64,000 bases of DNA from an uncultured Gemmatimonadota bacterium (GTDB taxonomy: Bacteria; SM23-81; DAOVCL01). Positions 25,974-31,224 of the stretch are shown here, piece after piece. Made by a program: the position numbers and the translations under genes. The first letter of the stretch is position 1, and the number at the start of each line of letters is the position of its first letter. The DNA is taken from the NCBI GenBank assembly GCA_964626665.1, contig CAZVGK010000002.1, forward strand, positions 64,001 through 128,000. The letters are read 5' to 3'. Below the pieces are notes generated by a model. It did not search any database. It saw only the letters and a program-made list of their open reading frames with translations, and was not told where the DNA came from.

Positions 25974-25987
25974 GAGGATACAGAATT

Positions 25988-26489
25988 GGGGTCAGCCCTC
26001 AGAAAATAGATTTTCTTCGGTCCTTTCACCCAACTCCCTAAACTGGCCATCCCCACTGAGAAGTTCTTTTGCTTTTTGCGATATATAACTCACATTCCCT
26101 CCTGTGTTCCCCCCAAACTCTATACCGATTGCCACATTGGTCGCCCCACCGTACCTCTGAGCCAGATACACGAGCTCTGTTCCCATGACATCCGCCGGCA
26201 CGCAGGACCTCCTCAGATACACCAGCAAGCCCAATTTCTCCACAGCACCTTCGAGGCACTGGAGGAAATGTTGCTGATCAAGCTCATCACCGAAGATCGC
26301 CTATCGTTCGTTCCCTCGGTCTGTGAGGTGATAGAGCGCACCAGGCCACCCAATGCGCAGAGGCCTTGCCATAGGTGAGTAACCTTCAGAGACAAGGAAT
26401 ATCCCAACAAATTATTATAATGGCTTGCCTACTACCGGAATAGTATAGCAACCCAAGAATGTCAATATCTATTTTCTGAGGGCTGACCC
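25988..26489 (-). mobile_element. Non-autonomous element: internally deleted RAYT-like transposase between 23-bp inverted repeats
   Basis: GGGTCAGCCCTCAGAAAATAGAT at 25989-26011 with a perfect inverse at 26467-26489; 26372-25992 reads MARPLRIGWPGALYHLTDRGNER*AIFGD... fused to a DnaA-C-like HTH tail. Confidence 0.8.
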
Positions 26490-26957: not shown

Positions 26958-27344
26958 TTACCATCTTGGATTGCTCCTCATCTTCCTCAATGCTGAACGA
27001 CTTCTCACGAGGTAGGCCGTAATGAATCGAGCTTGTGTAGAGTCCTTTGGGTCAATTTGGATGATCACTGCATAAGGAGTGTTTGATTCTAATGCAATCC
27101 TTCGCACCTTTCCGTTCGGTATCACCCTACGATAGATTTCCATCGTTGCATCTTCAAGGACATATTTGATCCAATCGATCCTCTCTGCTCTACTTTTGTC
27201 AAATCGATCCTTAACTGGGAATTTCCGACTACTTGATGAAAAGAACGCGTGATTAAAATTTTCTCGAAAGAATTTCACAGTGATTCCATCGAAGGTCAAA
27301 ACAGAATTCGCCTTTCCTACATATTTGTTGATATGGAGATTTCG
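26958..27344 (-). pseudogene. 5'-truncated small basic protein, possibly a BECR/PBECR-fold nuclease
   Basis: TFDGITVKF..NFNHAFF..RAERIDWIK..YAVII..FITAY; frame stays open up to the repeat site at 27345. Confidence 0.5.
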
Positions 27345-27361
27345 GGGGACACCATACTGAT

Positions 27362-28023
27362 TTATGTTTTTGGCTTTCTGCCTGGCTTCTTAGGTTTTAA
27401 ACTGAGACTAAGCATACTTTCCAATTGGTCAATAGATGCCATGCTGCCCAGTGGCCGGCCAGTCCTTTCATGTTTGCGTATGCTTTGTTCCTCTTCAGAT
27501 GTTACCTTCTCTGAGAGAAAATCTGACCAGTCTTCTTTAACCAGCGAAAGCAATGGTTTCATATTGACCAGTTGGTCATTCTTTCCCCTGATATGAGATC
27601 TCGCACTGCTCAAGCCCACCCCTCAGCTCTATCCACTAACCCAGCCCGCACCGGATTGTTCTCAATATATCTGACACAGACAAGTAAATACCTCTCATCC
27701 ATTACATGGGAAGCAAAACGTCCCTGCCAGAGATGGCCTCTCCATCCTTCACGAAAGTTTACCCGGCGCGTATATCGACGATGGGCCTCTCCGATAGCAA
27801 GCCTGAGACTCTCTCTTTCTGAGGGTACGGCAATGAGATGAACATGATTCGGCATCAGGCAATATGCCCAGATGTCAACATCATACGTCCTGCACCAGTG
27901 TGTCATAAGTTCGATGTAAGCTGTGTAGTCTTCATTTGAGAAGAAGGTTTGCAGCCTTCTGTTGCCCCTTTGGGTAATATGGTGGGGTAAGCCCGGCGCA
28001 ACGCCCCTTGCTATTCTCGGCAT
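27362..28023 (-). pseudogene. Y1 HUH (RAYT/IS200-like) transposase, frameshifted near 27615
   Basis: PHHITQRGNRR, MPNHVH (HUH), HLWQGRF, RYIENNPVRAG; continues in a second frame (SSARSH...PKKPGRKPK). Confidence 0.9.
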
Positions 28024-28049
28024 AGGGGTAATTTAGTTGGGGGCTACGC

Positions 28050-28078
28050 TTATGTCAAGAAATAAGTATGGTGTCCCC
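28050..28078. repeat. Family-B site (TTATGTCAAGAAATAAGTATGGTGTCCCC)
   Basis: Perfect 29-bp inverse at 29413-29441; partial copies at 27345-27363 and 28478-28504. Confidence 0.85.
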
Positions 28079-28095
28079 AGAATCATGCCAGAATC

Positions 28096-28245
28096 ATGGG
28101 TAGGTACTTCTCCGGCATTGCTCGGAGAAGGGGCAGGAAGATAGCCAAGCTCTCCTTGGCCAGAAAGATTGCCAAGGGAGTTTACCACATGTTGAAGAAT
28201 AAGATGACCTTCGCTGAATATAAGAGCAGATACTTAGCCAAGTGA
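28096..28245 (+). pseudogene. C-terminal remnant of an IS110-family recombinase
   Basis: Translates YFSGIARRRGRKIAKLSLARKIAKGVYHMLKN, the typical IS110 C-terminal helix pattern. Confidence 0.7.
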
Positions 28246-28477
28246 GCTCCTCTTTATTCTTTCACCCCATAGGGGTACTTGTCAAGACTGGGCAGCTTGG
28301 CGTCCCGAATAGTGATATCTTGCGTCTCTCCCCGAAGCGCCCATAGAAGAGTGGAGCAAATCCCTTAGATAATTCGGGAGCTTAAACGGGAGGGCACATA
28401 ACCAAGGGAAGGTTAAAATGAGGGAATAAATAAGGAGGGTCGTCTTAGAAAAAAGGGGTTGACGAGCTTCTTTATAG
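28246..28477 (+). ncRNA. IS110 3' non-coding end, predicted bridge/seek RNA
   Basis: Two stem-loops with internal loops carrying TGTCAAGA and ATAGAAGA; end motif GGTTGAC..TTTATAG abuts a family-B site. Confidence 0.5.
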
Positions 28478-28509
28478 AAGAAATAAGTATGGTGTCCCCA
28501 GAATTACTC

Positions 28510-28697
28510 CCAATAATATCTGGCCCCATAGTAATATAAACCAAGGCCGGTCTCTGAGTCAAGCTCTTTGCCTGTGAACTTGTGGGTGTTGGCCAGGGAG
28601 CCTGTCTCCTCGCTTACCCTTCCAAAGGGATAGTAGTGGTAGTCTTTAACCACATCTCCAGAGCTGTTGGTGATGACCACAGGTGAGCCAAGGGGTC
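28510..28697 (-). pseudogene. RHS repeat-associated core fragment
   Basis: LGSPVVITNSSGDVV..YYPFG..KFTGKELDSETGL..YYYGARYY, cut at both ends by repeat sites. Confidence 0.85.
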
Positions 28698-28819
28698 TAA
28701 GTAAAAAATGTAGCTTTGACCCCAATTTGTCTAAAGGATGTTTAGTTCTCTTTCTCAAGATGGGTTTCTTTGGCTTTGTTATGAACTTGTGGAAGTGGGG
28801 AGAGATGGATCGGTGTTGG

Positions 28820-29308
28820 TTAAGATGACTCCTGTTTTTTATTGCTCTTTGTTTCTGTTTGAGAGACTAAAATGACAAGTTGACGTTTTAATAACAGCCT
28901 CTTGGACCAGAAATCAAAAGAATAATGACAAATTAACAAGAATAGTATAACTGGAATCATCACGAGAAATTGGGATACAACCTCAGCAAGGTATGTCATT
29001 ATTTGCGTTAATAATGTATCCCCTTGTGTCACAATCATTTCTAGAGTTCGACCTGTTCGAATCAAACCTAAAAAGACTGTTAACACCAAAATGAGTACGA
29101 CAAGAATCCCCGTTGCCATCTTACCAATAGACAGTTTATTCTCCATTATTAGTAAGGTTCTTTTTACCCGAGAATCCAACTCGAAATCTTGAGAAGTCCT
29201 CAATTCTTCTTCAATCTTTCTTAGCCTCTTGCTTTCCTTCAGATGAACGATTATATTTCCACCTATTATTAGAGCTATAATAGAAAACGATATTATCGAG
29301 TAATACAT
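28820..29308 (-). CDS. AT-rich membrane protein with about 3 TM helices, putative immunity/cargo gene
   Basis: 162 aa ORF with a GGAGAGAGG ribosome-binding site; lies just downstream of a truncated gene 3' end (29330-29410). Confidence 0.6.
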   Translation of the reverse strand: MYYSIISFSIIALIIGGNIIVHLKESKRLRKIEEELRTSQDFELDSRVKRTLLIMENKLSIGKMATGILVVLILVLTVFLGLIRTGRTLEMIVTQGDTLLTQIMTYLAEVVSQFLVMIPVILFLLICHYSFDFWSKRLLLKRQLVILVSQTETKSNKKQESS

Positions 29309-29780
29309 TTTCCTCTCTCCAATTAAGGGTTATTCCGTTTCTTTCTTCTTTTCCATTTTCTCTTTGTCCTTAGACTCTCTAAGTTCTTCCATCATCTTGT
29401 AGTACTAATTCAGGGGACACCATACTTATTTCTTGACATAAACATGGCACACAACTTGGCAAATGGGGTCAGGTAAATGAGGTTAGGTTGAAGAGTAGAA
29501 ATAAATACCGCTGCAATTTTGATTCTATGGATTGGGGGGGAATTCGGGACACTTCCTATATTTCTTGGCAGTTGGGCTTGGCAAATTGACTTTGAGGAAA
29601 AGAAAGAACGGAGTGGTGGGGCACGGGACTGAGCACTGGGTATGAGGTTGAGAAAATCCAGGGCCTCAGGGCAATCCGCTTAGTGGAGATCGATCCATTA
29701 GTGGATCGCCTACCTCATTGTTCCATATCCACCCCGCTCTGGGAAACAAAAAAGAACATACCAATCCCACTTTGAGTTAC

Positions 29781-29803
29781 GGGGCAAGCCCTCAGAAAAT
29801 AGA
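29781..29803. repeat. Family-A site, solo copy
   Basis: GGGGCAAGCCCTCAGAAAATAGA matches the 25989 and 30902 sites. Confidence 0.75.
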
Positions 29804-29974
29804 CTTTCAAGAATCTCGGAACTTACGATGAGCACCGATCTGAACAGACTGCCATGCTCGTCCTCTCCCCCTTAATCTAACGCCTAATTCTGACTTCCGA
29901 GTCTCTCGGTCTCAAATCAAAAAGGACGAACAGAAATCCCCCCTGCAATTGCCAACGAGACGGTTGTTTCCTTG

Positions 29975-30274
29975 CTACTGTCGGAAAAGCCTCAGAACTC
30001 TGTCTGTTTCCTTCTTCGACACAATTCGGAGGATTAAGACCGTTTGTTGGTGAATTCCATAAAAGAGACGAAAACTATCTATCGGAGTATTTACCCGTAG
30101 CCGGAAGAGAGGATATTTCATACCTTTGATTTTCTTCTTGATGTTGCCGCGGGGGAACGGGTCTTGCTCCAGAATCTTTGCTCTCTTTAAAATGATATCT
30201 CGAGTTCCTCCTGGAAGTTTCGATAGGTCCTTTTGTGCGTGGGAAGCAAATTCAACTCGGAACCTATCGGCCAC
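29975..30274 (-). CDS. RelE/ParE-family toxin
   Basis: FRVEFASHAQKDLSKL..DPFP..KKIKG..FRLRV..FRLFY; overlaps the antitoxin gene. Confidence 0.85.
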   Translation of the reverse strand: MADRFRVEFASHAQKDLSKLPGGTRDIILKRAKILEQDPFPRGNIKKKIKGMKYPLFRLRVNTPIDSFRLFYGIHQQTVLILRIVSKKETDRVLRLFRQ

Positions 30275-30901: not shown

Positions 30902-31224
30902 GGGTTAACCCTCAGAAAATAGATCTTTAGGGACCTCTCTGTTCACTCCTTCAACTGGCTATCCCCACTGAGACACCCTTTCATTTTTTGCGTTACATAG
31001 CTCATATTTGTTCCCGCAATTCCCCCAAACTCTATGCCGATTGCTAAGTTGTTCTCCCCATTGTACCTTTGTCCAGATACACGGGTTTCGTTTCCATGCC
31101 ATCTGCAGGCACGCAGGGCCTCTTCAGATACACCAGCAAGGCCGAATCTCTCCACAGCACCTTCGAGACACTTTAGCAGATGTTGCCGATCACGGTCATT
31201 TTTTATTTTCTGAGGGTTGACCCC
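30902..31224 (-). mobile_element. Second, shorter copy of the deleted RAYT-HTH element with family-A inverted repeats
   Basis: GGGTTAACCCTCAGAAAATAGAT at 30902 and its inverse at 31204-31224; interior homologous to 26012-26280. Confidence 0.8.

Follow-up and report, generated by a model that had tools for sequence, protein, structure and literature searches.

A probable inactive remnant of an RNA-guided IS1111-group insertion sequence at a repeat flanking a RAYT-like gene in an uncultured Gemmatimonadota bacterium

Positions 28097–28478 of the 64,000-nucleotide stretch analysed here (the window) most probably represent the inactive 3′ third of an RNA-guided insertion sequence (IS) of the IS1111 group, which would have inserted into a near-cognate copy of a repeat termed B and would later have been truncated by a deletion. 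We assign this reading a probability of about 0.87. It is carried by the homology to related elements, the element ends, the fold of the predicted RNA, the covariation of guides with flanks in relatives and the position of the junction. An earlier reading of the letters (the sequence-only reading) had listed the main features, all of which we found where it had placed them, and together with their surroundings they are arranged as follows.

27341–27363, minus strand: left-type flanking repeat of the RAYT-like unit (inverted repeats I24/I25; genome copies)
27362–28023, minus strand: RAYT-like Y1 transposase gene, context outside the IS (PF01797, NF047646)
28035–28098, plus strand: B1, intact B repeat (sequence, repeats, genome alignment)
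28097–28245, plus strand: 3′-terminal 49 codons of a transposase gene of the IS110 family, IS1111 group (homology to P0002 residues 296–344)
28237–28301, plus strand: target-binding module of the predicted bridge/seekRNA (structure, covariation, guides compared with flanks)
28303–28379, plus strand: donor-binding module of the predicted bridge/seekRNA (structure, covariation, match to the right end)
28380–28478, plus strand: remaining right end of the element (sequence and comparison with relatives)
28479–28512, plus strand: core AG, then the right half of B2 and its tail, the occupied target (repeat comparison)
28513–28758, minus strand: RHS-associated core domain fragment cut by B2, context (TIGR03696)
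29408–29456, minus strand: B3, intact inverted B copy with its target unoccupied (repeat searches, genome alignment)

This layout accounts for the mosaic of the locus, with a RAYT-like gene, a B repeat, an IS tail, half of a B copy and a cut RHS fragment following one another. A contig from X1 covers 27300–29442 with zero differences, indicating that the mosaic is not an artefact of one assembly alone, where X1 may be the source sample of the assembly and not independent support.

The open reading frame at 28096–28245 (plus strand) encodes 49 amino acids, and the next 232 nt or so are free of open reading frames. Searching with this peptide among longer proteins yielded three relatives. Over all 49 residues the peptide shares 88% identity with the C-terminal end of P0002, a protein of 344 residues comprising PF01548 and PF02371, supporting the proposed IS110-family remnant; identities to P0001 (211 aa, an internally deleted form) and P0003 (288 aa) are 90% and 65%, respectively. 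The expected match to IS110 profiles was obtained for the relative P0002, which scores 183 bits on the NF033542 profile 'IS110 family RNA-guided transposase' (cut-off 140), but not for the peptide itself, as a Pfam scan of the 49 residues alone gave no family at E ≤ 1. Judged from its sequence, the peptide thus belongs to the IS110 family by homology to P0002, with the PF01548 and PF02371 domains themselves absent from the window. The peptide aligns with P0002 residues 296–344, starting downstream of the GLAPTTRGSG motif carried by P0002 and of every catalytic residue, so that the remnant cannot encode an active enzyme. The ATG at 28096 arises from the junction, and no catalytic residues remain. 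DNA homology with the relatives begins at 28097, and the contigs of other copies (runs X20 and X21) part from the window at exactly this position, continuing into transposase sequence. Within the window's own genome, which is 99.65% complete, we found no other copy of the remnant, no 5′ part of the element and no cognate transposase; the copy has neither a catalytic domain nor a left end.

IS1111-group elements are described as encoding transposases of 330–350 residues with a GL-P----S(t)G motif (PMC11187229) and as having subterminal inverted repeats (7–17 bp), a long non-coding region 3′ of the gene and a short left end (PMC11187229; PMC11208160). Size and motif are found in the relative P0002, with the motif lying upstream of the truncation point of the window copy. 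In the window 233 nt follow the stop codon, and the left end of the relative L025 extends for about 98 nt ahead of the start codon. The inverted repeat GACGAGCTTCTTTATA is present in the right end, the window having the right arm only. By these features, namely a 16-nt subterminal repeat, a long downstream non-coding region and a 344-aa protein, the remnant appears to match the IS1111 group.

Relatives of the element, numbered with the prefix L, were collected by scans of metagenome contigs (80 loci) and species genomes (3 loci); G000 denotes the window's own genome, G001 and G002 genomes of the same genus. At the DNA level, window positions 28097–28483 are matched by L025 (90%), L018 (87%), L016 (80%) and L017 (73%). 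A search of a plasmid collection for a named close relative gave a best identity of about 33%. Two of these relatives carry insertions of their own. L016, located in G001, has a group II intron inside its 3′ non-coding end (428–2292), with a 569-aa open reading frame between RF02005 (428–659) and RF00029 (2209–2292), and its right flank agrees with its guide at 0 of 9 positions. L018 contains an insert of about 170 nt in the non-coding end (1047–1214) from a repeat family that is abundant in the window's genome, exemplified by GTGGCAGAA..TTCTGCCAC, with more than 100 partial matches across many G000 contigs, including the window families D2, D5 and I16; the host of L018 therefore has the same abundant repeat family as G000.

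The left end, derived from L025 and L020, reads ...TCA-AG-TTATAATATAAAGAAGCTCGTC, and the right end, derived from L025, L018 and the window, reads ...TTGACGAGCTTCTTTATAGA-AG-.... In the window the right junction is ...TTTATAG|AAGAAATAAGTATGG at 28471–28485 (in its longer form ...CTTTATAG|AAGAAATAAGTATGG), with the element terminus ...TATAGA at 28478. The right arm of the subterminal inverted repeat lies at 28461–28476; the left arm in the relatives is TATAAAGAAGCTCGTC, and in L025 and L020 the complement of the right arm lies 6 nt in from the left end, which makes the left copy of the 16-nt inverted repeat subterminal. A left end starting AAG-ATAT, as the sequence-only reading had expected, is present in 8 of 11 relatives, but the two closest ones start with TTAT. 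The core is most simply the dinucleotide AG, as L017 has CAG at its left copy and AAG at its right copy, and the right-target guide of L038 likewise has CAG. The right end also contains a −35-like TTGACG (28459–28464). Four of the five AG-core elements with both ends combine a right-end TTGAC(A/G) with a left-end TATAAT, 16–17 nt apart if circularised; for the fifth, L026, this spacing in the circle is 19 nt. A hybrid promoter of this kind in the circle is stated for ISPpu10 (PMC12288879). Other relatives, L027–L030, have a TG core; their right-target guide has AG opposite a TG target core, leaving the first core base unmatched there, and L028–L030 are inserted in a recurring motif CTTCG(T)CGCT..GCAATGAC.

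The non-coding end harbours a candidate bridge/seekRNA of about 150 nt with two loops, predicted to bind target and donor. Loop 1 is closed by an outer stem in which 28237–28249 pair with 28290–28301, and comprises TTATTCTT at 28254–28261, the hairpin ACCCC-ATA-GGGGT at 28264–28276 and TGTCAAGA at 28280–28287. Its 5′ side (28250–28263) forms the right-target guide and its 3′ side (28277–28289, containing TGTCAAGA) the left-target guide. Loop 2 is enclosed by an outer stem of 28303–28310 with 28372–28379 and has an inner GCG..CGC stem at 28322–28340. Its 5′ side (28311–28321) contains GATATCTT at 28314–28321, and its 3′ side (28341–28352) contains ATAGAAGA at 28343–28350, equal to the right end plus core. 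The donor module also includes a small hairpin at 28353–28363.

A covariance model of the 3′ region, proposed as a check by the sequence-only reading, was built from ten non-identical 3′ regions aligned with MAFFT, for which we wrote out a structure of six helices. This model, R1, gave 19 matches in 86 sources (315,435 bases), including five elements it had not been trained on (L027–L030 and L003; 22–35 bits) whose proteins are only about 30% identical. The RNA module of the window scores 163 bits, as high as intact copies, with all helices intact. In the alignment of the R1 matches (17 distinct rows, 33 pairs, six helices), 91.6% of the cells pair and 26 of the 33 pairs show changes on both sides, where these counts carry a bias toward the structure, as the alignment was fitted to R1. 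None of 500 shuffles attains any of five pairing measures, and slid partners pair at only 24–47%. Outer stems show compensatory changes even in the plain MAFFT alignment, RNAalifold alone detects two of the stems, the outer one of loop 1 and the inner one of loop 2, and the inner hairpin of loop 1 is swapped wholesale between relatives. The covariation thus upholds the claim that the non-coding end encodes a two-loop guide RNA: by this comparative evidence the fold appears real, and the RNA would presumably once have been made at this locus. One further element recognised by R1 lies in the same genome, at C36 18892–20106 of G000 (L003). It is an intact IS110-family element, its 3′ RNA scores 35 bits, and it has the only intact IS110-family gene of this genome with an R1-recognised 3′ end; its transposase is 34% identical to P0002.

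We compared the guides of loop 1 with the sequences flanking the insertions. The 3′ side equals the top strand left of the insertion, with exact runs of 6–9 nt in 14 of 15 cases, and guide and flank vary together: TGTCAAG in nine relatives and at B, ATCAAG in L025, GCTCAG in L017, and AGATTG and AGAGTG in the TG-core group. Only L003 (C36) departs from this, with a longest run of 4 nt between left guide and left flank; unlike this left flank, its right flank agrees with the guide (TGACCCCAT, 9 nt). The 5′ side of loop 1, when reverse-complemented, corresponds to the top strand right of the insertion. Anchored on the core and scored over 7 nt, cognate right guides averaged 4.78 matches compared with 3.14 for non-cognate ones (a sum attained in 105 of 50000 permutations); the averages over 9 nt were 5.33 and 3.60 (81 of 50000). 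This test comprised nine non-redundant AG-core elements, L043 being left out since its guide is the same as that of L038. The clearest matches were L017 (8/9), L022 (7/9) and L018 (first six positions past the core). A register-free longest-match test, in which 0 of 20000 permutations were as high, was dropped in favour of the anchored one as it is noisy in A-rich flanks; in that test the window scored 5, no higher than non-cognate pairs. In the relatives, each half of loop 1 thus follows the flanks of its own element. In loop 2, changes on the 3′ side go along with changes of the right end and core, in three states (ATAGA-AG, ATAGA-TG and ATAGG-TG); ATAGAAGA matches the element's own right end plus core. 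The comparison for the donor 5′ side was with the left ends of relatives; with the two nearest ones the match is discontinuous (7/10 by eye). The window itself scores 8/8 for the left guide, 5/7 (5/9) for the right guide and 8/8 for the donor 3′ side. The guide order, with the top-strand match 5′ of the bottom-strand match, corresponds to that described in IS1111 seekRNAs (PMC11187229).

Could the loop–site matches have arisen by chance in decayed non-coding DNA next to a gene fragment? The 64-kb window contains three occurrences of TGTCAAGA, in B1, B3 and loop 1, and two of ATAGAAGA, in loop 2 and at the right junction; neither total is above those of shuffled sequences. Likewise, the single-sequence fold of the window copy is no more stable than shuffles (z −0.78), and an Rfam scan of 27000–30000 at E ≤ 1 returned no family. 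What is beyond chance is the place of each word inside a loop of the 232-nt non-coding end. Moreover, the helices covary over 17 distinct sequences, R1 finds elements outside its training set, and guides track flanks in relatives with entirely different targets, rendering a chance origin scarcely credible.

The intact form of B, TATGTCAAGAAATAAG, is located at 28051–28066, with an inverted copy near 29431. A 27-nt stretch, AAGAAATAAGTATGGTGTCCCCAGAAT, is present at 28057 and 28478 and, inverted and with one mismatch, at 29408–29434, whereas shuffles gave 0 matches; a longer repeat at 28035–28083 recurs inverted at 29408–29456. B1 contains the unoccupied target TGTCA-AG-AAATAAG at 28053–28066 and ends in two 11-nt units, CCAGAATCATG, at 28077–28098. 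A short tandem tail follows GTGTCCCC in five of six aligned B copies (all but B3); since this tail ends the B copies, B1 is complete and IS sequence extends from about 28097. The tails of the window copy (28077–28098), of the G000 copies on C10, C7 and C53, and of the G002 copy on C47 consist of 2–3 tandem units of about 8–13 nt, which restate the repeat end (CC.GAAT...). The tail of B2 is unlike that of B1, indicating that the two are separate copies. Three intact copies carrying TGTCAAGAAATAAG are found in G000 (28053, inverted at 29438, and contig C10), besides the occupied half at 28479 and two variants on C7 and C53. G002 has one copy with TGTCAAGAAATAAG, with one mismatch elsewhere in the 26-nt pattern, and one variant, and G001 has neither.

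B lies directly before the start of a Y1 (RAYT-like) gene in four of six aligned copies. On the minus strand of B1, TTGACA-17-TAAATT is positioned directly upstream of the RAYT-like start codon, so that the IS target adjoins a probable −35 box. The RAYT-like gene matches PF01797 (E 2.9e-14), and among NCBIfam models it matches NF047646 (REP-associated tyrosine transposase) best, with 72 bits, under the cut-off of 80, compared with 18 bits on IS200. It occupies two overlapping frames, 27610–28023 (137 aa) and 27362–27619 (85 aa), and is probably frameshifted; contig C21 has two RAYT-like copies in open frames of 224 aa. The Y1 gene is flanked by inverted repeats, 27341–27363 and 28035–28098, as is characteristic of RAYT genes, the former having the core GTATGGTGTCCCC in common with B and an orientation inverted relative to B1. 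B does not behave as a many-copy short palindromic REP, with about six target-bearing and about 13 partial copies in G000, and its hairpin is weak (−6.2 kcal/mol, z −0.94). B is therefore more aptly regarded as the terminal part of a RAYT-like unit, and less so as a REP family. Another repeated unit, at 26033–26287 and 30945–31199 (76–85% alike) and with inverted 29-nt ends, TTGGGGTCAGCCCTCAGAAAATAGA, near 25986, 26464, 30899 and 31204, makes up a family of its own, small and mobile-looking.

The sequence-only reading had proposed that the guide is programmed against B and that the element parasitises the sites of another element. In favour of programming, the junction TGTCA-AG-AAATAAG falls exactly where the left guide places it within B, and the left guide TGTCAAGA matches B at 8/8 positions. 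This left half, however, is common to most of the clade regardless of target: the predicted TGTC targets do recur, as 9 of the 11 left junctions known from relatives have TGTCAAG for their flank, but all of these are outside B. The right guide of the window matches B at 5/7, a score it also reaches on the non-cognate flanks of L022 and L019, and which the guides of L025 and L018 equal on B. TGTCAAG occurs 469 times in the genome. The idealised 14-nt target has no perfect match there, five sites with one mismatch and 39 within two mismatches; B, in its three copies, has two mismatches, like 31 other sites, and five sites are hence better than B. We conclude that B is a near-cognate site and not a dedicated one.

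A lineage dedicated to B, with a guide tuned to it and spreading by occupying B copies of RAYT-like units, would account for the junction position and the perfect left guide, and for the right guide having AATAA, absent from other guides, where B has AAATAAG; with a one-base bulge, eight consecutive right-guide positions match by eye. IS1111 members that target REPs (PMC12288879) or transposon ends are also known. Only one of six B-type sites in the genome is occupied, however, with three intact perfect copies empty, and the B core motif at up to two mismatches is found in 0 of 20 related loci. Along with the five better genomic sites and the clade-wide left flank, this makes a dedicated lineage unlikely. 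The relatives sit in unrelated sites, contradicting the expectation of insertion at B-type targets, and the notion of parasitism falls back on a single event. What the sequences suggest is that RNA-guided insertion took place once, at a near-cognate site which by coincidence is part of another element.

The order of events we infer as follows. The intact element would have encoded a guide RNA 3′ of its transposase gene. Loop 1 would pair with both target strands around the core AG, its 5′ side with the top strand right of the core and its 3′ side with the bottom strand left of it, and loop 2 would pair likewise with the junction of the excised circle, composed of right end, core and left end, while the DEDD transposase would exchange strands at the core. 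The element would thereby have inserted at TGTCA-AG-AAATAAG inside B2, a promoter-side flank of RAYT-like Y1 genes. Some time afterwards, an illegitimate deletion at a microhomology of about 2 nt (28097–28098) would have fused the B1 tail to transposase codon ~296, so that the left end and the catalytic domains were lost together with the left half of B2. RAYT-like units in direct-orientation tandem are present on contig C21. On the far side of B2, RHS homology starts at 28513; the fragment scores 35.3 bits on TIGR03696, covers profile positions 1–38 of 76 and is cut after ...YYYGARYY, whereas a relative in G002 is uninterrupted through ...RYYNPGVGRF.... The rest of the RHS gene, sought left of 27341 as a test of a single-block insertion, is absent there. 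A search of G001 and G002 for the pre-deletion form or an empty site returned only the RHS fragment (G002) and scattered repeats.

Bolder readings of the locus, either that the RNA is expressed and used in trans or that the left guide of the clade seeks the edges of sigma-70 promoters, are together improbable. The promoter idea stems from the left guide TGTCAAG, whose complement is the −35 hexamer CTTGACA; the elements would then target the upstream edge of promoters lying on the other strand, such as that of the RAYT-like gene in B1. A −10-like hexamer at 16–18 nt is found in 6 of 10 insertion sites compared with 184 of 467 CTTGACA sites (39%), a difference that is not significant. As for the RNA, it would have to be transcribed as an orphan and employed at B by another IS110-family transposase such as that of C36. 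The intact helices and the score of 163 bits are compatible with a working RNA, and R1 does recognise the 3′ region of the C36 element (35 bits). Two ISs with transposases 46% identical are reported to agree in the fold and the guide matches of their confirmed or predicted seekRNAs, which led the authors to infer that seekRNAs are not confined to very closely related transposases (PMC11187229), and solo copies of a small-RNA module are described for ISPpu9 (PMC12288879). The C36 transposase, however, is only 34% identical to P0002, no sigma-70-like promoter was found on the plus strand between 27900 and 28600, and the remnant is a single copy in the genome. Its left boundary, moreover, has no left end, subterminal repeat or core and leaves 147 nt of coding sequence, as expected from random deletion. 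We thus regard continued use of the orphan RNA as very improbable; if true, a dead IS would have left a working address label for B/RAYT sites.

We therefore consider the remnant an ordinary inactive element of a known class that reveals no new mechanism. That IS110/IS1111 elements find their targets by RNA is already published, as are the 3′ RNA of the IS1111 group, its guide order and the subterminal repeats (PMC11187229; PMC11208160); insertion into REPs (PMC12288879), attC sites and transposon ends has likewise been described. The locus adds an uncharacterised IS1111-type clade from uncultured bacteria, whose ends, core, RNA fold and guide positions were derived from natural copies, and about ten distinct natural guide–target pairs that could seed reprogramming experiments.

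Compared with the IS1111-group elements ISEc11, ISPa11, ISKpn4 and ISPst6, as described in PMC11187229 and PMC11208160, the clade is alike in its DEDD transposase of about 340 residues with GL-P----SG, its subterminal inverted repeats and long 3′ non-coding region, and in a top-strand match 5′ of the bottom-strand match, the two overlapping on a short core. It also resembles IS1111 elements in the right-end −35 and left-end −10 boxes, which would come together in the circle. It differs in that no IS110-family gene among the plasmids searched exceeds about 33% identity to its protein, its RNA has no Rfam match, the clade is known here from sequence alone, its host phylum has only seven species genomes in the searched collection, and the window copy is truncated and non-autonomous.

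A target within the repeat of another element, here a RAYT-like flank, is shared with ISPpu9, which inserts in REPs (PMC12288879), with the REP-targeting ISs (Tobes and Pareja 2006), with IS4321/IS5075 in the inverted repeats of the Tn21 family and with the IS1111-attC elements. Unlike these, a single B copy is occupied here and the relatives lie at unrelated sites; B is moreover low-copy (about six sites) and not a genome-wide REP family, with no evidence of specialisation. With IS621 (PMC11208160; PMC11208158) the element shares two internal loops reading both strands around a core dinucleotide, and the discontinuous pairing of the right donor side reported for IS621 is apparent here as well. 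The two differ in the location of the RNA, which IS621 carries in its left end, ahead of the gene, and the present element in its right end, in the reversed order of guides inside the loop, in the inverted repeats, which are long here, and in the core, which is CT in IS621 and AG here.
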